Assembly: GCA_021821045.1 (NCBI GenBank)
Contig: JAKACW010000009.1
Coordinates: 1,109-65,108 of the forward strand
DNA: 64,000 nucleotides
Source: Pseudomonadota bacterium
Lineage (GTDB): Bacteria; Pseudomonadota; Gammaproteobacteria; JAADHS01
Direction: 5' to 3'
Shown here: piece after piece, positions 11,303 through 64,000 of the stretch
Layout: every line of letters begins with the position of its first letter
Position numbering within the stretch: the first letter of the stretch is position 1
Position numbers and translations under genes: made by a program
Notes under the pieces: generated by a model
The model's database searches: none
What the model was told of the DNA's origin: nothing
The model's input: only the letters and a program-made list of their open reading frames with translations

Positions 11303-13251
<1,949 letters not shown>

Positions 13252-24557: not shown

Positions 24558-25733
24558 CTATTTATCGAGGGAGGGTTCGATCGAAAGTTCAAGCGCGTCG
24601 CTCATGGTATCGGGCTCGTCGTCTTTTTTGAGGGACAGCTTCGAGGCGCTTTCGGCCAGTTGCGCGGCCGCGTTCTTCTCCGACAAGCTGATGCGCAGGC
24701 GCAAGTTGTTTTGCGAGTCGGCGTTGCGTAGGGCTTCTTCGAGGGTGATCTTGCCTTCCTTGAACAATCTAAACAGCGCGCCGTCGAAGGTTTGCATCCC
24801 GATGTTCTCGGACTTCTCCATGACTTCCTTGATCTTGCCGATCTCGCCTTTGAGGATGAGATCGCACACCAGCGGCGTGCCAAGCAGCACTTCGACCGCG
24901 ACGCAGCGTTTGCCGTCGGTGGTCGGAATGAGTCGCTGGGAAACGAAGCCGCGAATGTTCAGCGACAAGTCCATCAGCAATTGATTACGCCGTTCTTCCG
25001 GGAAAAAGTTGATGATACGGTCCATCGCCTGGTTGGAACTGTTGGCGTGCAAGGTCGAGATGGCCAAGTGTCCCGTTTCAGCGAACGCGATGGCGTGCTC
25101 CATGGTTTCGCGGTCCCGAATCTCGCCGATCAGAATCACGTCCGGCGCTTGGCGCAGGGTGTTTTTTAGCGCGTCCTCGTAGCTGGCGGTGTCCAAGCCC
25201 ACTTCACGCTGATTGACGATACATTTTTTGTGTTGGTGCACGAACTCGATCGGATCTTCGATGGTGATGATGTGGCCGGCGGAATTGCAGTTACGATAGT
25301 CGATCAGCGAGGCCAGAGAGGTGGATTTGCCCGATCCCGTGCCGCCGACGAAAAGGATCAAGCCGCGTTTCTGCATGATCAACTTTTTCAGAATCGGTGG
25401 CAGGCCTAAGCTTTCCGAGCTGGGAATGTCGGTCTTGATGGAACGAATGACCATCCCGACTTGATTGCGCTGCTTGAAGATGTTGACGCGGAAGCGGCCC
25501 AATCCGGCTTCGGAAATCGCCAGGTTCATCTCGGGCCGTTGTTCGAATTCGGCGATTTGTTCCTGGTTCATCACGCGGTAGGCGATTTCCTTGACGCGCC
25601 CCGGCGGCACCGGCGTTTGTTCCAAGGGCATCAGCGCGCCATGGATCTTGGCGCTGACCGGAGCGCCCGTAGAGAAATATAAGTCGGACGCCTCTTTTAT
25701 GGTCATGATCTTGAGGTAGTCTTTAAGCTCCAT
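24558..25733 (-). CDS. pilU: PilT/PilU-family type IV pilus retraction ATPase, PilU-like. Orphan: no pilT or other pil genes in the window.
   Basis: 391 aa. Walker A is GGTGSGKST. The PilT-family boxes are IITIEDPIEF and the Asp box VILIGEIRDRETM. The His box is TGHLAISTLHANS. It has a ~40-aa C-terminal tail typical of PilU rather than PilT. Confidence 0.8.
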   Translation of the reverse strand: MELKDYLKIMTIKEASDLYFSTGAPVSAKIHGALMPLEQTPVPPGRVKEIAYRVMNQEQIAEFEQRPEMNLAISEAGLGRFRVNIFKQRNQVGMVIRSIKTDIPSSESLGLPPILKKLIMQKRGLILFVGGTGSGKSTSLASLIDYRNCNSAGHIITIEDPIEFVHQHKKCIVNQREVGLDTASYEDALKNTLRQAPDVILIGEIRDRETMEHAIAFAETGHLAISTLHANSSNQAMDRIINFFPEERRNQLLMDLSLNIRGFVSQRLIPTTDGKRCVAVEVLLGTPLVCDLILKGEIGKIKEVMEKSENIGMQTFDGALFRLFKEGKITLEEALRNADSQNNLRLRISLSEKNAAAQLAESASKLSLKKDDEPDTMSDALELSIEPSLDK

Positions 25734-56679: not shown

Positions 56680-58818
56680 TTGGATCGATTGCAGGGATTC
56701 TGGGTGAGTCAACAACTTAAAGCGCTGCTGCTGTGCGTTATGGCAGGTCTCGCCGCGGCATTGGGCGGCCTCGCCGTCGACGGATTCGCCGCACCTGAGC
56801 GTTTTCTTTACGATCAGCGCCAACGCGCCCACCGTGCCGATCTCGTCGCGCCCGATCAGCTGGTCCTGGTGATGATCGACGAACATACGCTTGCTGCATT
56901 GCGGGCGGACTTGGGGCGATTTCCCTGGCCGCGCCATATTTACGCCGACGTTTTGGATTTCATCGCATTGGGCGAGCCCCGCGCCGTGGTGTTCGACATT
57001 CTGTTTAGCGAGCCCGAGGCCGTCGATGGCCAAGGTGCGGTGAACGATCAGCGGTTCGCCGAAGCGAGCAGTGCGTTGCCTGCGGCACATGCCGCCCGCG
57101 TAGCGACTACGGGCGGGGAAGGGAAATCGGAGTTCGACACGTCGGCGTTTGAAATCGGGCGGGCGAACGCGGATCCGGGCGAGTCGGCGCTGCTGGTGCC
57201 GCCGATTGATCCGTTGGCGCGCAGCGCTCGGGCCATAGGGTTCGTCGATCTAACGCCGGATTCCGATGGCGTCGTGCGTCGCACGCCGTTGCATCGGCCG
57301 TTTTCTGGATCGGTTTTGCCGTCGCTCGGAATCGCTGCTCTGCGCGCCGCAGGATGGTCGGACTGGACTGTCCGTCCGGATGGATTGGCAGCCGCGAGCG
57401 GGCTTGTCATTCCCGCGTCAAGTGATGGTTCGTACGACGTTGGGTTCTATGGCCGATTCAATGAATTGTCGTTCTCGGCGCTCGTCGCCGGCGCGAAGAA
57501 AATCCACGAGGGTGACGTCGAAAACCTGTTGGTGCATCCCGACGAGTTTCGCGACAAGATCGTGTTCATCGGTGCCAGCGCGGCGGGTCTCGATGATCTG
57601 AAGGCCAATCCTCTTTCTCCGGCCGCACCCGGCGTGCGGATTCACGCCAGTGTCGCCGGCAATGTTCTTGACAACACTTTCTTGCGCCGTCCAGCCCGCT
57701 GGTGGGTCGGCGTGCATAGCGTGGTGGTCTCGTGTCTGATTGGCGCCGCAACGCTGCTCGGCGCGCGGCTGGTCTGGCAAATCGCGTTGCCGGTGGGCGT
57801 GCTGGCGCTGTTCGTGCTGGCCGGTTTCGAGGTATTCGCCCATGGTTGGATCGTGGAAATGTCCGCGCCGCTCGTTGCCGGGTTAGTGAGTTGGCTGAGT
57901 GGGTTGGGCTACGTGAATGTTGTCCAGGGAAAAGACCGACGCAAAGTGCGGCGATTGCTCGCGCAGTACGTGTCGCCTTCAGTGCTTTCCGCCGTCGTCG
58001 ATAAATATGAGGACGTCATCCGCGCGGAGGTGGGAACGCGGGAAAACGTCACGGTGTTGTTCTCCGACGTGCGGTCGTTCACGTCCATGTCGGAGAACCT
58101 TCAAGCCGAACAAGTCGTCGATTTGCTCAACGTGCACTTTGGCGTGATGACTGAAATCATTTTCCGTTACGACGGCACGTTGGACAAGTTTATCGGCGAC
58201 GCGATCATGGCGTTTTGGGGCGCGCCGCTGCGCATCGACGATCACGCGGAGCGCGCGGTAAGAGCGGCGTTGGACATGGCTCGAGGTATCGAGACCGTTA
58301 ACGCCACGCTCAAGGTCCGCGGTTTGCCGCAGATTCGCATCGGCATCGGCTTGAACAGCGGCGAGGTTGTGCTGGGGAACATTGGTTCGGAGCGCAAGCT
58401 GGATTACACGGTGATCGGCGACAACGTGAATCTGGCTTCGCGCATGGAAGGTTTGACGGGCAAGTACGGCTGCACGGTTCTGTTGTCCGAGGCGACGTAC
58501 TTGGCGGTGGCTGCAAAGGTGCCAAGTGCGCTGATCGATCGAGTGCGGGTCAAAGGCAAGCATCAGCCGATCGGCATTTACGTTCCCCTGGAACTGCTGG
58601 AGGGAACCGTGGATCGCGCTCAATGGGAGCAGGTGAGAGCCAACATGGATGAAGCGTTTCAGCATTACTGCGCGCGGCGCTGGGAAGCGGCGATGACCGC
58701 ATACGGGAAGGTTCCGTTCCCAGGTGTCGCTGAGCTGTTCGTCAAACGCTGCAAGGGGTACATGGACGCGCCGCCGTCTGCCGATTGGAACGGTGTGACC
58801 ACGTTGGACAGCAAGTAG
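56680..58818 (+). CDS. CHASE2-sensor class III adenylate/guanylate cyclase
   Basis: The N-terminal CHASE2 periplasmic domain is flanked by TM helices. The three TM helices at WWVGVHSVVVSCLIGAATLLG... come next. Then a CYCc domain (VTVLFSDVRSFTSMSE...FIGDAIMAFWGAP...GIGLNSGEVVLGNIGS...TVIGDNVNLASRMEG) and a ~80-aa C-terminal extension. Confidence 0.88.
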   Translation: MDRLQGFWVSQQLKALLLCVMAGLAAALGGLAVDGFAAPERFLYDQRQRAHRADLVAPDQLVLVMIDEHTLAALRADLGRFPWPRHIYADVLDFIALGEPRAVVFDILFSEPEAVDGQGAVNDQRFAEASSALPAAHAARVATTGGEGKSEFDTSAFEIGRANADPGESALLVPPIDPLARSARAIGFVDLTPDSDGVVRRTPLHRPFSGSVLPSLGIAALRAAGWSDWTVRPDGLAAASGLVIPASSDGSYDVGFYGRFNELSFSALVAGAKKIHEGDVENLLVHPDEFRDKIVFIGASAAGLDDLKANPLSPAAPGVRIHASVAGNVLDNTFLRRPARWWVGVHSVVVSCLIGAATLLGARLVWQIALPVGVLALFVLAGFEVFAHGWIVEMSAPLVAGLVSWLSGLGYVNVVQGKDRRKVRRLLAQYVSPSVLSAVVDKYEDVIRAEVGTRENVTVLFSDVRSFTSMSENLQAEQVVDLLNVHFGVMTEIIFRYDGTLDKFIGDAIMAFWGAPLRIDDHAERAVRAALDMARGIETVNATLKVRGLPQIRIGIGLNSGEVVLGNIGSERKLDYTVIGDNVNLASRMEGLTGKYGCTVLLSEATYLAVAAKVPSALIDRVRVKGKHQPIGIYVPLELLEGTVDRAQWEQVRANMDEAFQHYCARRWEAAMTAYGKVPFPGVAELFVKRCKGYMDAPPSADWNGVTTLDSK

Positions 58819-58832
58819 TGAGGAGGGAGCGA

Positions 58833-59324
58833 ATGGGAAATTGCACGCGAGTTTGCCTGGCCATAGCCGTGTGGTTGATGGCTGCCGCCGCCGGGGCTGA
58901 AGAGTTCCGCTATGTGGTGAGCAAGAAAGCCGACTTGCTGTTGGAGCCGAAGTTTGGGACTGCGGTGGTCATTACCGTCGCGCAAGGCGAAAAAGTAGCG
59001 ATTCTGGAGCAGCAGGGAAGCTGGTTGCGCGTGCGCCATGCCGATGCTCGCGGCTGGGTTTCGCGGCTATTGGTCGGTCCAAACCCTCCGATGGACAAAG
59101 TCTCCGCCCTCGACAAGATCGACGATGCCGCGACATTGAATGTCCGTCGTCGCGCCTCCGACGTCACCGCCGCCGGGGCGACCCGCGGTTTGACAGCCGA
59201 GGACCGGCGTCGCGCCAGTCAGGAAGACGCGGCCGATTTCGATGCGTTGGCGCGCATGGAGCAATGGCGCGTCGATGACGAGGAAATCGCGGCGTTCTCA
59301 AACCCGATACGGGGGTTGCCATGA
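58833..59324 (+). CDS. Periplasmic SH3b-domain protein (signal peptide, SH3_3, acidic tail)
   Basis: An AGGAGGGA Shine-Dalgarno sits before ATG 58833. Signal peptide MGNCTRVCLAIAVWLMAAAAGA. SH3b core VAQGEKVAILEQQGSWLRVRHADARGWV. It starts 15 nt after the cyclase stop. Confidence 0.75.
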   Translation: MGNCTRVCLAIAVWLMAAAAGAEEFRYVVSKKADLLLEPKFGTAVVITVAQGEKVAILEQQGSWLRVRHADARGWVSRLLVGPNPPMDKVSALDKIDDAATLNVRRRASDVTAAGATRGLTAEDRRRASQEDAADFDALARMEQWRVDDEEIAAFSNPIRGLP

Positions 59325-60151
59325 AAAGACCACTCGTTGTTATTGCGACGGCGGTCGCGCTGTTGGGAAGTGTGATTCATGCCGACGCCGGGCCGTCGTC
59401 CGACAGGACGCGTCTGTCCGATCAAGCGGGCGTATTCGCCGACACGCCTCAGGATGTCGCGGCAGAGATCAATTTCGGTCGCAACGTGGCCGCGCGCATT
59501 CTGGCGCGTTATCCCTTGCACGGCGACGAAGCGCTGAATCATTACATCAATCTGGTTGGCAACACGCTTACCTTATCCAGCGCGCGTCCGGAGTTGACGT
59601 TCCGCTTTGCGGTGCTGGAAACCGATGCGGTCAATGCCTATGCGGCGCCCGGCGGTTATATCTTCGTTACTCGCGGAGCGTTGAACGCCATGAGCGATGA
59701 AGCGGAACTGGCCGCCGTGCTGGCCCATGAGATCGCCCATGTCACCGAAAAACACATCGTCAATGCCATGAACATCAGCGGCGAGAGCGGCGGGACCGGT
59801 ATCGGGTCAATCTTTTCCAGCATCTCGGACCCGCTGCGGGCGGCCTTCACCGTGGCCGTGGACAAAGCCATGAGCATCCTGTTTCAGGAGGGATTGGACC
59901 AGCAAGATGAGTTCGAGGCGGATCGTTACGCGCTCGAGCTGCTGGCTGTGACGGGCTACGACCCGCGCGCCCTGGAACGGTATTTGGAAAAACTCGGATC
60001 CCGTCACGACATGCCGCAGACCATAACCGATACCCATCCGGGTTTCGATACGCGGCTGGCGTCGCTGCGCGCGGCGACGGGGGAAATGGGCTTGGAGAAA
60101 GCGGGTCAAGCGCGATTAACGGAGCGGTTTACATCCTATGTGCACAAATAA
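59321..60151 (+). CDS. M48-family Zn metallopeptidase (HExxH), periplasmic
   Basis: Signal peptide, then HEIAHVTEKH followed by a downstream Glu (EFEADRYALELL). It overlaps the SH3 gene stop by 4 nt. Confidence 0.85.
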   Translation: MKRPLVVIATAVALLGSVIHADAGPSSDRTRLSDQAGVFADTPQDVAAEINFGRNVAARILARYPLHGDEALNHYINLVGNTLTLSSARPELTFRFAVLETDAVNAYAAPGGYIFVTRGALNAMSDEAELAAVLAHEIAHVTEKHIVNAMNISGESGGTGIGSIFSSISDPLRAAFTVAVDKAMSILFQEGLDQQDEFEADRYALELLAVTGYDPRALERYLEKLGSRHDMPQTITDTHPGFDTRLASLRAATGEMGLEKAGQARLTERFTSYVHK

Positions 60152-61379
60152 TGTTCAGCATTTTCGATTCCTTCTTGCAGGGGTGACTGTGGTGGCGGCG
60201 TTGTGGAGCGCGCCCGATGTGCAGGCGGACGAGTATCACTACCGCAACATTTTGGTGGGGGAGCGGGCCAGCGGAATGGGCGGCGCCTACACGGCGGTGT
60301 CCGACAGTCCGGCGGGCCTGTATTACAATCCCGCCGGCGTGGTGTACGCGGCGGGCGGCAGCATTACCGCCAGCGTCAGCACCTATGACTACATCAGCAA
60401 GAGTTACGGTCGGGGTCTGAGCGGATTAAACGATTGGAATCGCCGCTCGACGAACTTTGTGCCGAGTTTCTTCGGCGTCTTGCGCCCAGTCGGCAATGGC
60501 GTCCTGGGCATATCCTATGCGATGCCCGACGCGGTCACCGAGGATCAGGATCTGGAGTTTCAGGATTCGGCGAATAGCATTCGCCGCTATGTCGTCAACT
60601 TCAATAACCAGGACCGCACGTTCCAGATTGGTCCTTCGTATGCGCGACGTCTCAATGACGAGTTGTCGGTGGGCGCATCGGTCTATTTCCACTACCGCGA
60701 GCGTGAGTGGATTTCAAATCAGTTGACCGAATTGACGTCCGGTCTCTACCAGATGAACAACACCTACTTTCAAACCAACGAGTACGGCTATAAGCCCGTG
60801 TTGGGCGTGATGTGGAGTCCGCTGGATAAGTGGTCTTTCGGCGCCTCGGTGAGCAAAGTGACGATCTATGAGGGAAAAGCGGACAGCCAAGTGACGACCC
60901 GCAGCACGGACAACGATCTCACGTTCGTGAAGTCGGCCACCGAGGACAAGCGCAAGCATCCGCTAAACGTGACTTTGGGCGCGGCCTATTTCTATTCACC
61001 CGCGTTCATGATCTCGGCCGACGCGGCCTATTACGAGAAATTCACCGATCCGATTTACGGTGAGCGCGAGTCGGTGGTGAACCTTTCCATCGGTGGCGAG
61101 TACTATCTCAACCCCGCGATCGCGCTGCGCGCCGGGGTCTTTACCGACTATGCCAACACGCCGGACCTCGTCGCGGGACAGTCCAACCAACCTGAGCACG
61201 TGGATTACCTGGGGCTTAGCTTCAGCGTGACCCATTTCACGCGCAACTCTTCCCTATCGCTGGGTTGCGTTTACCGGGACGGCGACGGCAAGGCGCAAAT
61301 CGTCGGCGGCTCGGACGAAATCCAAGACGTCTCCTACACGGGAGCTTCGTTGTTTATAACCTCGGGGTATTCTTACTGA
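60138..61379 (+). CDS. FadL/OmpP1/TodX-family outer-membrane beta-barrel transporter
   Basis: Signal peptide. RASGMGGAYTAVSDSPAGLYYNPAG matches the FadL N-terminal hatch motif. The C-terminal strand ends aromatic (TSGYSY). Confidence 0.75.
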   Translation: MCTNNVQHFRFLLAGVTVVAALWSAPDVQADEYHYRNILVGERASGMGGAYTAVSDSPAGLYYNPAGVVYAAGGSITASVSTYDYISKSYGRGLSGLNDWNRRSTNFVPSFFGVLRPVGNGVLGISYAMPDAVTEDQDLEFQDSANSIRRYVVNFNNQDRTFQIGPSYARRLNDELSVGASVYFHYREREWISNQLTELTSGLYQMNNTYFQTNEYGYKPVLGVMWSPLDKWSFGASVSKVTIYEGKADSQVTTRSTDNDLTFVKSATEDKRKHPLNVTLGAAYFYSPAFMISADAAYYEKFTDPIYGERESVVNLSIGGEYYLNPAIALRAGVFTDYANTPDLVAGQSNQPEHVDYLGLSFSVTHFTRNSSLSLGCVYRDGDGKAQIVGGSDEIQDVSYTGASLFITSGYSY

Positions 61380-61408: not shown

Positions 61409-63793
61409 CTATTTAGAACACACGGCGTGAATCTGGAACATGTCCGTGTGCCCTTGCACGACCTTCTCGACACCGTCCTGACGCAGCGTCCGCATGCCTT
61501 CCTTTAGCGCCGTTTGGGTCATGACCGATACAGTGTCCCGGTCCAGAATGTGGCGCTTGATGCCGTCGCTGCCGATCAGCAGTTCGTGCAAACCGATGCG
61601 GCCGGCATAGCCTTTGCCGTCGCACTTCTCGCAACCGACCTTGCGATATAGGCTGAGGCGCTGCTCGGGACCGCCGTATTTTTTCTTCCATTCATCCATG
61701 GTCTTGCGGTACAGCGCTTCCTTTTCTTCCTCGGATTCGATGTTCTTGGTGAATTCCACGCAGTATTCCCGCGCCAGATCCAAGATTTCGGTGTCGGACG
61801 GAACGTACTTCTCCTTGCAGTCCTTGCACAGCCGTTTGGCCAGACGTTGGGCCAGCACGCCGAGCAGGGCATCGGCGAAGTTGAAAGGGTCCATGCCCAT
61901 GTCCAGCAAGCGCACGATACTTTCCGGCGCGCTGTTGGTGTGCAAGGTGCTAAAGACCAAGTGACCGGTGAGCGAGGCTTCCACGCCGATGTGGACTGTT
62001 TCGTGATCGCGCATTTCGCCGACCATGATCACGTCCGGGTCGGCGCGCAGGAAGGCACGCATAGCGGCGGCGAAATCAAGACCGATCTTGGTATTCATCT
62101 GCACTTGCCGCAGGCCCTGTTGGGTGATTTCCACCGGGTCTTCAGCTGTCCAGATTTTTCGCTCGGGCGTGTTGATATAGCCCAGGATCGAGTGCAAGGT
62201 CGTCGTTTTACCGGAACCAGTCGGACCGCACACCAGGAACAGACCGTAGGGCGTCGAGACGGCTTTTTTCAGCGCATCGATGTTGTGGTCGCTTAAGGCG
62301 AGCTTGTCCAGCGGCAGCGGCTTGCCGCTGGCAAGAATACGCATGACCACGTCTTCCTGGCCGTTGGCTGTCGGGATGATCGCGACGCGCAGCTCCAATT
62401 TGCCGCCGTCGGACCTTTTGAATTCGATCTTGCCGTCCTGCGGTCGGCGCTTTTCCGAGATGTCCAGCTTTGCCAGAATCTTGATGCGGGAGATCAGCGC
62501 GTTTTTGTACTGGGACGGCAGTTCATGGTAATCCATCAAACTGCCGTCTTTGCGGAAGCGGATCTTGACTTTGCCTTTGCCCGGCGAGGGTTCGACGTGA
62601 ATGTCGGATACCCCTTGCCCTTGGGCGTCGACGATGACTTTGTTCAAAAGTTTGACGATGACGTTGTCGGTGATGTCTTTGTCGTCGACATTGTCTTCGT
62701 CTTCATCGTAGGACTGCAGATCCGTGCTGCCATCGGCGATTTCTTCGATGGATTCTTTGGCGATGTCATCGGCGGTATAGTAGTAAAGGATCGCTTTCTT
62801 GATCGATTCCGCGGTCGCCATGACCGGTTCGATGAAGATGTTGGTATGAAACCTCAGGGCGTCCAGGGCATCCCAGTCCATGGGGTTTTCGATGGCCACG
62901 GCGAGTTTTTCGTTGTAGAAATGCACCGGGATGACGGTGTGCTTTTCGGCGATCTCGTGGGGCACGTGCTTGAGCGCGTCGGGCGCGATTTGAAACTTGC
63001 CAAGATCGACGAACGGAATGCCCAATTTCTTGGCCAGGCTTTGCTGAATTTCACCGGTGGTAACGAGGCCCTTTTGGACCAGCAGCTCGCCCAGGGGCGT
63101 GCCCTTCTTGGTCTTCTGTTCCTCCAGCGCTTCATTGAGCTGTTCTTCCGTTACCAGATTCTCGCCGATCAGAATCTCGCCGAGCTTTAAATGGGGCATG
63201 GACTTCTGGCGAATCAACGCCTCGTGCAGGTCCTCGGCGTTGTCTATGGCCTTGGTCGACAAGTAGGCTTGCTTGTCTGCTTGCTCCGGCGGCTCGTTTT
63301 TGGGCGCGGGCGCGGCGGCTTTTCTAACCGGCGCCGCGCTGACAGCGAATTCCAGGCTTTCGCCGTTGACTTCACAACGGGTTAAGGCGCTGAACGGAAT
63401 ATAGGAGTGAACATACTTATTCGCGCCATGTTTCGGGTAGATGTGAACGCCGTGTTTGTCGCGGCAGTAACCAATACATTCGCCGGACAAGTCGCTGCCG
63501 TCATGGAAGAACAGACTGAACGGCATGGCCGGCGGATCCGATTCTTGGGGATTCCAGGGCTTGGGGCTTGTAATGTGCAGCGCCTGCAAACGCGCGAAGG
63601 GAACCTTGACCGGGCGCGGCTTATCCTTGAGGAACACGGCGACGAATGCCTGCTCGACGTTGAACAGGGCAAGCTTGGCCGGCAGGTTTGTGCCGTCCAC
63701 CAGGCCGACCATCACGTTTTCGCCAACCTTGATCGCGTTAGCGGGGTTGGGCTGGCAGCTCGGCGGTGACGGAAGCAGTATCGCGGTGTCCAT
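61409..63793 (-). CDS. GspE/PilB/MshE-family secretion ATPase with a c-di-GMP-binding-type MshEN domain and an extra ~190-aa N-terminal domain. Orphan.
   Basis: Two tandem MshEN-like motifs (LKLGEILIGENLVTEEQLNEALEEQ; PLGELLVQKGLVTTGEIQQSLAKKLGI). The T2SSE N-domain has the EPS-I-like box IVKLLNKVIVDAQ. Walker A is GPTGSGKTT. The Asp/His boxes are IMVGEMRDHET and GHLVFSTLHTN. A tetra-Cys zinc site is CKDC...CEKCDG. Residues 1-190 precede all of this and have no match I recognise. Confidence 0.85.
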   Translation of the reverse strand: MDTAILLPSPPSCQPNPANAIKVGENVMVGLVDGTNLPAKLALFNVEQAFVAVFLKDKPRPVKVPFARLQALHITSPKPWNPQESDPPAMPFSLFFHDGSDLSGECIGYCRDKHGVHIYPKHGANKYVHSYIPFSALTRCEVNGESLEFAVSAAPVRKAAAPAPKNEPPEQADKQAYLSTKAIDNAEDLHEALIRQKSMPHLKLGEILIGENLVTEEQLNEALEEQKTKKGTPLGELLVQKGLVTTGEIQQSLAKKLGIPFVDLGKFQIAPDALKHVPHEIAEKHTVIPVHFYNEKLAVAIENPMDWDALDALRFHTNIFIEPVMATAESIKKAILYYYTADDIAKESIEEIADGSTDLQSYDEDEDNVDDKDITDNVIVKLLNKVIVDAQGQGVSDIHVEPSPGKGKVKIRFRKDGSLMDYHELPSQYKNALISRIKILAKLDISEKRRPQDGKIEFKRSDGGKLELRVAIIPTANGQEDVVMRILASGKPLPLDKLALSDHNIDALKKAVSTPYGLFLVCGPTGSGKTTTLHSILGYINTPERKIWTAEDPVEITQQGLRQVQMNTKIGLDFAAAMRAFLRADPDVIMVGEMRDHETVHIGVEASLTGHLVFSTLHTNSAPESIVRLLDMGMDPFNFADALLGVLAQRLAKRLCKDCKEKYVPSDTEILDLAREYCVEFTKNIESEEEKEALYRKTMDEWKKKYGGPEQRLSLYRKVGCEKCDGKGYAGRIGLHELLIGSDGIKRHILDRDTVSVMTQTALKEGMRTLRQDGVEKVVQGHTDMFQIHAVCSK

Positions 63794-64000
63794 GGTTGTC
63801 CATATCGTTGGCTTGTAAATAAAGTCCTTCGCCGGCCCGCGGGCGAGCGTGTCCCTCCCGGCTGTTATCGACTGGCTTTTTCACGGACTTAAGCGATCGC
63901 GGCCGCTAATTTCGAATTAAAAACCTCCGCTGTAGTCATAGATCCCATATCGGTCATCGCTTTCACCCTACCGACTTACTGTATAATTCGGCCCCCTATG

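Follow-up and report, generated by a model that had tools for sequence, protein, structure and literature searches.

A widespread and nearly always solo lineage of PilB/MshE-class ATPases with a predicted tandem β-barrel head ahead of a cyclic di-GMP-type module

At one end of a 64,000-nucleotide stretch of gammaproteobacterial DNA (contig JAKACW010000009.1 of assembly GCA_021821045.1, positions 1,109 to 65,108; hereafter the window) lies a gene for an ATPase of the superfamily that comprises GspE, PilB and MshE. It is a 794-amino-acid open reading frame (ORF) with an ATG start on the minus strand, and an identical 794-residue product is called on the 98-kb ENA metagenome contig k141_279037 (locus L001), which continues past the window edge. 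An earlier, sequence-only reading of the window had described the product as a GspE/PilB/MshE-superfamily ATPase with an MshEN motif pair, the type of motif that binds cyclic di-GMP (c-di-GMP), and with an N-terminal extension that it could not place. Pfam and NCBIfam matches and the motifs we located agree with that description. The coordinates of all features are collected in Table 1.

The C-terminal half of the protein is the ATPase core. The Pfam family T2SSE (PF00437) covers residues 376–787 with 387.9 bits against a cutoff of 24.9 (E 5e-116), and a motif search of the window protein found the Walker A box (GPTGSGKT, at residue 523), the Asp box (EDPVE, 551), the Walker B box (DPDVIMVGEMR, 585) and the His box (TGHLVFSTLHTN, 609). 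All the elements named before, Walker A, Asp box, His box and a tetracysteine zinc site, are therefore present, and Walker B with them. The zinc site itself is unusual in its spacing: the two CxxC pairs stand 53–64 residues apart in 116 of 120 members of the family described below, versus 30 in neighbouring MshE-like ATPases and 27 in a comparator (P0005). The additional residues are poorly conserved, with a median identity of 33%. These matches show a predicted PilB-class, hexameric-motor-type ATPase of the type IV filament superfamily with its catalytic motifs intact.

Among NCBIfam models the best match is PilB (TIGR02538, 539.9 bits), and the models for GspE (TIGR02533, 478.8 bits) and TfpB (NF053534, 416.2 bits) also match; each score lies below the respective equivalog cutoff (675.65, 630.25 and 850). 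The closest solved relatives are Myxococcus xanthus PilB (3jc8, 449 bits), Thermus PilF (6f8l, 446) and Geobacter PilB (416), with GspE at 332. Identity to the MshE-like ATPases of MSHA-like gene blocks in relatives' genomes is 36%. As judged from sequence, the core is nearer PilB than GspE or MshE.

Ahead of the core we find one complete MshEN receptor domain, residues 203–345, with predicted c-di-GMP binding. The NCBIfam model NF053729 ('c-di-GMP motif, MshE-related', 53 positions) matched residues 203–255 with 72.5 bits (cutoff 38), and Pfam MshEN (PF05157) matched residues 257–341 with 70.4 bits (cutoff 23.1, E 1e-19); the latter part, MshEN_C, aligns with the N1D of M. xanthus, Geobacter and Thermus PilB/PilF. 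The motif of Wang et al. 2016, RLGxx(L/V/I)(L/V/I)xxG(L/V/I)(L/V/I)xxxxLxxxLxxQ, occurs in two tandem copies with a short spacer, followed by MshEN_C (PMC5013675). In the window protein, motif 1 (K203–Q226) has Lys for Arg at position 1, which the relaxed form of the motif permits, and Asn at position 10, which lies outside the relaxed set [GAS] and corresponds to Gly18 of Vibrio cholerae MshE. Alignments place the same Asn in PilB of Geobacter and of M. xanthus, the latter of which is reported to bind c-di-GMP (review PMC11656802). Motif 2 (P233–K256) has Pro for Arg at position 1 and Lys for Gln at position 24, both permitted, and the spacer between the motifs is 6 residues versus 5 in the published arrangement. 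Ten residues of the pair are invariant in the family alignment: L204, G205, L208, L223, Q226, P233, L234, G235, L253 and K256. The sequence-only reading had counted the motif pair among the unusual features of the gene, but position 1 of the PilB model aligns at residue 203, and the pair is therefore the usual MshEN_N subdomain in its usual place, in the same layout as in M. xanthus and Geobacter PilB.

Upstream of this module the protein continues for some 200 residues. Met199 stands just ahead of the point where PilB models start to align, and we considered it as the true start, with the longer N-terminus as an artefact. This was ruled out. The 198 codons upstream have a G+C content at third codon positions (GC3) of 0.73–0.86, as in the rest of the gene; their codon-usage likelihood is positive in frame 0 only; the region is conserved in homologues, with phmmer E values down to 2e-18; and against an 80%-identical orthologue its nonsynonymous divergence (pN) of 0.19 is far below a synonymous divergence (pS) that is saturated at ~0.8. 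On these four grounds the N-terminal extension is real coding sequence.

Searched alone, residues 1–200 matched no Pfam or NCBIfam family. An exhaustive phmmer search against 1.84 billion representatives returned 22 relatives at E ≤ 1e-3, and the full-length ones among them (770–833 residues) share the architecture of the window protein. An AlphaFold2 model of residues 1–152, computed from a 20-sequence alignment, has a mean predicted local distance difference test score (pLDDT) of 94.3 and a predicted template modelling score (pTM) of 0.89. It is all-β, with ten strands in two five-stranded units, and shows the five-stranded bent β-barrel of the Sm/LSm/Hfq fold. Its best Foldseek match is the tandem Tudor of 53BP1, at a template modelling score of only 0.25; a profile search of the PDB gave weak agreement with the LSm domain of EDC3 (E 0.09), and the N-domains of several family members match Pfam LSM and RimP-SH3, likewise weakly. 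In this model residues 1–148 are two tandem Sm/Tudor-like small β-barrels. The head carries an N-terminal LPxPP motif and, in the second barrel, F.DG..L.G..G....G.H.(F/Y)P. A PilZ identity of the β-barrel was considered and rejected: neither the RxxxR and (D/N)x(S/A)xxG motifs nor a PilZ profile or fold match was found.

A catalogued family does emerge at the level of the relatives. In a profile search 15 of 20 N-domains matched PF22478 (DUF6982) at E ≤ 10. P0019 scored 31.4 bits over profile positions 3–131 of 134, above the gathering cutoff of 24.5, and P0003 (23.7) and P0017 (23.6) fell about 1 bit short of it. The 134-position profile spans the entire tandem barrel in these relatives; the window protein itself had no DUF6982 match in the Pfam search. 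Given the matches of its relatives, to which phmmer ties it (E down to 2e-18), the N-domain of the window protein most probably represents a divergent offshoot of this Pfam family, which has no known function, and DUF6982 is mentioned nowhere in the literature we searched. The extension that could not be placed before thus matches no accessory domain of known role, and the family level adds only DUF6982. It had also been taken for a domain of 190 residues. An extra N-terminus is indeed there, but it is not a single domain of that length: a predicted tandem β-barrel of 148 residues is followed by a disordered linker and by the relic of a c-di-GMP module.

That relic becomes apparent by comparison with the family. 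In the family alignments most relatives have four 24-residue motifs with a strict 30-residue period, which amount to two complete MshEN_N modules. In the subclade of the window protein the first one and a half motifs are replaced by a variable Pro/Ala-rich linker. What follows the linker, YLSTKAIDNAEDLHEALIRQKSMP, lacks the LG dipeptide; at the same position the relatives have the motif PLGEYL..KAIV....LE.AL.RQKSMP, with a further motif before it. The linker differs in length and sequence even among close relatives (median identity 26%). In a model of residues 1–264, residues 152–172 fall below pLDDT 50 and the overall pTM is 0.54, on which grounds the β-barrel head appears to be flexibly tethered and not docked onto the c-di-GMP module. 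Rigid docking of the N-domain on MshEN_N is unsupported by the same values.

Table 1. Features of the ATPase locus, as positions in the window unless a locus is named
Feature	Position	Strand	Basis or remark
Whole gene: 794-residue PilB/MshE-class ATPase with predicted N-terminal tandem β-barrel	61409..63793	-	ORF list, ENA contig, Pfam/NCBIfam
Predicted tandem small β-barrel (2 x 5 strands), divergent DUF6982-like, residues 1-148	63350..63793	-	
Pro/Ala-rich variable disordered linker, residues 149-177	63263..63349	-	pLDDT, length variation, identity
Remnant (second motif) of an upstream c-di-GMP module otherwise lost, residues 178-202	63188..63262	-	family alignments
MshEN_N, two 24-residue motifs with 6-residue spacer, residues 203-256	63026..63187	-	NF053729, motif match, invariant residues
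MshEN_C (classical T2SSE_N / N1D α/β subdomain), residues 257-345	62759..63025	-	Pfam PF05157, PilB/PilF alignment
N2D + CTD ATPase core, residues 376-787	61433..62668	-	Pfam T2SSE, motifs, PilB 3jc8/PilF 6f8l
Tetracysteine zinc site CKDC-x61-CEKC with ~30-residue family-specific insertion, residues 656-724	61622..61828	-	CxxC spacing
Divergent intergenic region of 204 nt, then prfC ATG (+) at 63998-64000	63794..64000	.	sequence, L001 call
Operon of CHASE2-class III cyclase, SH3_3, M48 peptidase and FadL-like genes	56680-61379	+	
MSHA-like block near an orthologue	L048, L050, L067 (~12.4-20.8 kb); also L032, L042, L044, L066, others		further gene cut by locus end

The architecture is no isolated case but that of a large conserved family. 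Searching with the full-length protein gave at least 120 distinct clusters at 90% identity, of 785–863 residues, which are 47–80% identical to the window protein and nearly all of which cover 97–100% of the query. Relatives occur in 139 species in a scan of species-representative genomes, from which 80 loci were fetched. Most carriers are metagenome-assembled genomes (MAGs) of Gammaproteobacteria, and the taxa include Chromatiaceae/Chromatiales, Ca. Tenderia, Acidiferrobacteraceae, Pseudohongiella, SAR86 and Glaciecola MAGs; one carrier, Collimonas rhizosphaerae H4R21 (L087), is a cultured isolate. Their names in the sources are generic ('GspE/PulE family', 'PilB', 'TadA', 'T2SS protein E'), and several of the proteins carry a precomputed DUF6982 tag. 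Word-indexed searches, in which the N-terminus alone or as a profile returned almost nothing, together with the 22 phmmer relatives, had at first suggested that the N-domain is extremely rare, a view overturned by the full-length search and the genome scan. The apparent rarity arose because the members collapse into few 50% clusters and because the N-domain is too divergent for detection with a single sequence.

Conservation within the family is graded. Median identity to the window protein is 81% in the C-terminal domain (CTD), 66% in N2D, 59% in MshEN_N and 26% in the N-domain, so that no other folded part of the protein evolves as fast as the β-barrel head. This gradient fits the statement that the N1D, or N-terminal region, is the most variable and partner-specific part of PilB and other extension ATPases (PMC11656802). 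Walker A reads GPTGSGKT in 118 of 133 family sequences. A sister clade (P0001, P0002, P0004, P0008 and P0010) keeps the head and MshEN, and its Walker A is degenerate or missing (GPRGQGKS, GTNDSGKS, none). The two members of this clade whose loci were fetched, P0002 (L006 10001–12448) and P0008 (L007 10001–12376; L008 7756–10131), lie directly downstream of, and on the same strand as, prkA-DUF444(yeaH)-spoVR(ycgB), with prfC divergent upstream. The clade may represent a c-di-GMP receptor of pseudo-ATPase type that is linked to the prkA-yeaH-ycgB stress module.

The gene of the window stands alone. In the 64 kb we found no pilin, platform, secretin or prepilin peptidase gene, as the sequence-only reading had said, and the gene is locally an orphan. 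That reading had left room for a complete msh or type II secretion system (T2SS) operon immediately beyond the window end. The 10 kb past the window edge contain no msh, pil or gsp (T2SS) operon; the genes there are prfC, DUF2914, valS, holC, pepA and lptF. The ATPase gene is monocistronic, between prfC, which is called divergently at L001 8216–9796, and a convergent FadL/PorV-like gene. The 204-nt spacer to prfC had no Rfam match to a riboswitch or other RNA element and no consensus promoter, and the gene ends showed no consensus sigma-70 promoter or intrinsic terminator of note.

The relatives are solo as well. We called and clustered the ORFs of 89 loci and considered the neighbour clusters that recur in at least four of them. 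In the clade of the window protein the recurring annotated neighbours are a divergent prfC, a globin, a Fer2-FAD-NAD reductase, a polysaccharide deacetylase and purL, none of them a pilus component; the globin and reductase genes, or a prkA-yeaH-spoVR operon, sometimes stand in between, followed by the polysaccharide deacetylase and purL. No pilC, pilD or gsp neighbour was seen among the annotated clusters of the 93 loci fetched, and ten Pfam-annotated loci contained no pilus component. A pilin-type N-terminus occurs in only one of the 93 loci (L070), which makes solo status a property of the family.

In L070 an ORF of 224 residues with the pilin-like N-terminus MEKQKGFTLIEIAIV (12295–12969, plus strand) lies directly downstream of the family ATPase. 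The divergent pairing of prfC with the ATPase gene recurs in L090, L091, L092, L093, L012 and L013. With DUF2914 past prfC, it is the sole neighbour relationship kept throughout the window subclade, across a spacer of ~90–490 nt.

The Pseudohongiella/SAR86 clade has a different context. Its gene follows what gene sizes and order indicate to be the ribosomal/secY/rpoA operon, then an aminotransferase and an EamA transporter, and lies one to four genes upstream of an MSHA-like block (ExeA/MshM-type AAA_22, secretin, TPR protein and a 571-residue ATPase). The 571-residue, MshE-like ATPase shares only 32% identity with the adjacent DUF6982-type ATPase, which itself shares 45% with the window protein; these values make the family an old, distinct paralogue. 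An origin by recent duplication of the neighbouring MshE was considered and is ruled out by the 32% identity. The window gene is thus its lineage's orthologue in a vertically inherited family of environmental Gammaproteobacteria, which is set apart from canonical PilB, GspE, TfpB and operon-encoded MshE. The family is a PilB/MshE-class lineage of c-di-GMP-type ATPases with a DUF6982-like head that is widespread, nearly always solo and unstudied.

How does this lineage compare with characterized motors? V. cholerae MshE (5HTL; PMC5013675) has, like the window protein, a tandem module of 24-residue motifs over 53/54 residues followed by the α/β MshEN_C, and by analogy the same mechanism would be expected, with c-di-GMP promoting motor function. 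MshE is encoded in an msh operon (mshI-Q type, with secretin, MshM and MshN), whereas the window gene lies outside any such operon; MshE has Arg38 and Gln61 and a 5-residue spacer, where the window protein has Pro, Lys and 6 residues and most family members have two tandem modules. PilB of M. xanthus (3JC8) and Geobacter (5TSG/5TSH) has the same layout from residue 203 onwards to the tetracysteine site and shares the Asn at position 10 of motif 1, but lacks the ~200 extra N-terminal residues and the ~30-residue insertion at the zinc site. Thermus thermophilus PilF (6F8L) is a PilB-class protein with three N-terminal GSPII/MshEN domains, to several of which the MshEN of the window protein aligns. 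PilF repeats the whole MshEN and has no β-barrel head, whereas the present family duplicates MshEN_N only and places a DUF6982-like domain ahead of it; in the window protein, unlike most relatives, the additional, upstream MshEN_N module is half lost. TfpB of Acinetobacter baylyi is a functional precedent, as a phylogenetically distinct extra extension ATPase, and the window protein is not its orthologue. TfpB is not known to have a β-barrel N-domain.

The interpretation we favour, with a probability of roughly 45%, is that the protein is an accessory, c-di-GMP-gated extension ATPase that serves a pilus machine from another part of the genome, with the head as a docking or regulatory module. 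c-di-GMP would bind the four-helix MshEN_N bundle and license the motor, on the model of MshE in V. cholerae and PilB in M. xanthus, and the motor would then engage the platform of a type IV pilus machine whose genes lie elsewhere. The protein would be a second, signal-dependent extension ATPase, comparable to TfpB, a second and unlinked extension ATPase that works with PilB on one type IVa pilus (T4aP) machine in A. baylyi (PMC11656802). The window also encodes a retraction ATPase of the PilT/PilU family (see below), which shows that a T4aP is present. The most plausible role of the tethered head is to bind a protein or small ligand as a partner-specific module for docking or regulation; it would not be catalytic. 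The position of the Pseudohongiella/SAR86 orthologues near an MSHA-like block is a hint that the family is connected with type IV filament machinery.

Several observations weigh against this interpretation. No partner machinery was identified in the window or in the 10 kb past its edge. Extension ATPases are normally encoded with their platform, in pilBCD or an msh operon, so that a uniformly solo family is not what one would usually expect of a dedicated motor. The sister clade without Walker A keeps the β-barrel and MshEN, so the N-terminal modules can work without ATP hydrolysis, and this favours signalling. The MSHA-like block beside the Pseudohongiella orthologues has an ATPase of its own, as divergent from them as stated above. 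Finally, motif 2 has Pro and Lys in place of Arg38 and Gln61 of V. cholerae MshE, and the non-binding XpsE is altered at these same positions (R38G, Q61V) in a list of eight changes (PMC5013675).

The signalling alternative fares best among the rivals, and we regard it as possible though clearly less probable than an accessory motor. The protein would be a c-di-GMP-responsive signalling or scaffold ATPase that powers no filament; the β-barrel and MshEN would be its core, ATP turnover would act as a conformational switch, and the c-di-GMP level would be relayed to a non-pilus partner, for example in a stress or translation-linked pathway. Its solo position among housekeeping genes in nearly all loci and the conserved divergent pairing with prfC speak for it, as does the sister clade, which combines the N-domain and MshEN with a degenerate or missing Walker A right after prkA-DUF444(yeaH)-spoVR(ycgB). 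M. xanthus PilB is reported to signal for exopolysaccharide (EPS) production besides its role in pilus assembly (PMC5544727). Sm/Hfq/Tudor-like folds elsewhere bind RNA, peptides or small ligands. Yet the catalytic motifs, the zinc site and the N1D/N2D/CTD layout are strictly conserved (CTD median identity 81%, Walker A in 118 of 133 sequences), beyond what a simple switch should need. The synteny with prfC may reflect vertical inheritance only, and no partner has been identified.

It is unlikely, in our view, that the protein is instead the principal and sole T4aP PilB of its lineage, with an N-terminal decoration and with pilC and pilD relocated. The best family and structure matches are PilB, and the window holds a 391-residue retraction ATPase of the PilT/PilU family (24558–25733, minus strand; TIGR01420, 434.6 bits against a cutoff of 319.1), which shows that T4aP genes are present in this organism and dispersed over its genome. 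This gene, which the earlier reading had not mentioned, adjoins a 77-residue ORF and glnE, away from other pil genes; like the extension ATPase gene, it is unlinked from them. However, the protein scores below the PilB equivalog cutoff (540 versus 675.65 bits), no pilC or pilD neighbour appears in any of the 93 loci, which come from many families, and the head, the duplicated MshEN_N of most members and the zinc-site insertion are all absent from canonical PilB.

Slightly more doubtful still is a bolder form of the signalling idea, in which the protein belongs to a new, non-pilus class of cytoplasmic, c-di-GMP-gated AAA+-like machines or scaffolds and its tandem Sm/Tudor-like head recruits RNA, a peptide or a stress complex like PrkA-YeaH-YcgB. 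If this were true, the pairing with prfC and the clade of dead ATPases beside prkA would represent a link from c-di-GMP to starvation and translation physiology.

A GspE of a T2SS encoded elsewhere is very unlikely. Source annotations such as 'type II secretion system protein E' and 'GspE/PulE family protein' and a TIGR02533 score of 479 bits point in that direction, but the score is below both the GspE cutoff of 630.25 and the PilB score, and solved GspE/EpsE structures match ~115–130 bits less well than PilB. Moreover, XpsE of a T2SS has lost the c-di-GMP-binding residues (PMC5013675), whereas the present family keeps them invariant, and no gsp genes lie near the gene in any locus.

The four-gene cyclase operon on the other side of the gene had invited a further suggestion. 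The ATPase gene is convergent with the FadL-like gene that ends this operon, as the sequence-only reading had noted, and we find a gap of 29 nt; the match of this last gene to PorV/PorQ is weak (46 bits against a cutoff of 90) and that to Toluene_X is faint. In the genome of a 63%-identical orthologue (L091/L092) the gene order is lptGF, pepA-holC-valS-DUF2914, prfC ↔ ATPase → Ig-like protein ← thiC, which is the order of the window minus the operon. The operon is also absent from a Halothiobacillaceae relative (L093) and did not recur in four or more of the clustered loci, and in L010–L012 the Ig-like gene, which in the window lies beyond the operon, directly follows the ATPase gene. Its absence from the same slot in relatives makes the adjacency a lineage-specific insertion. 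The proposed functional cross-talk between the ATPase and the CHASE2-cyclase operon is therefore extremely improbable: physical adjacency in the window is all that favours it, while the operon is missing from the syntenic slot, the convergent genes are not co-transcribed, no RNA element, consensus promoter or terminator links them, and a class III (Guanylate_cyc) cyclase makes cyclic AMP or cyclic GMP, whereas MshEN is a receptor for c-di-GMP (PMC5013675).

The findings contradict no current model. They define an unstudied PilB-class lineage that is mostly unlinked to pilus genes, has one or two c-di-GMP modules and starts with a predicted tandem β-barrel. It is acknowledged as open in the type IV pilus field what several PilB-type motors each do, and what the highly variable N-terminal region of an extension ATPase is for (PMC11656802). 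The lineage bears on both points, the first of which includes the question why a bacterium would retain more than one such motor. For DUF6982 the analysis supplies a structural prediction, a constant domain setting and the range of taxa in which it occurs. The comparison also shows that the database names of these proteins (GspE, TadA, PilB) are generic, removes the lead of a cyclase cross-talk, and points to tractable hosts in the Collimonas isolate and possibly in cultured Pseudohongiella.

Some further neighbours deserve mention. The other genes of the window include those for lipopolysaccharide-core glycosyltransferases, glnE, groESL, dsbD, accBC and thiC. A gene for an EAL-domain protein is the divergent neighbour, immediately upstream on the opposite strand, in L061, L065 and L085, and a GGDEF protein is encoded ~4 kb away in the Halothiobacillaceae relative (L093 12644–13660). 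In several Chromatiales-type loci a gene for a methyl-accepting chemotaxis-like protein is also found close by. Past the window edge, valS (L001 3158–7330) is called at 1390 residues, versus 941 in the syntenic L091, for which a fusion, an extension or a gene-calling artefact may be responsible.

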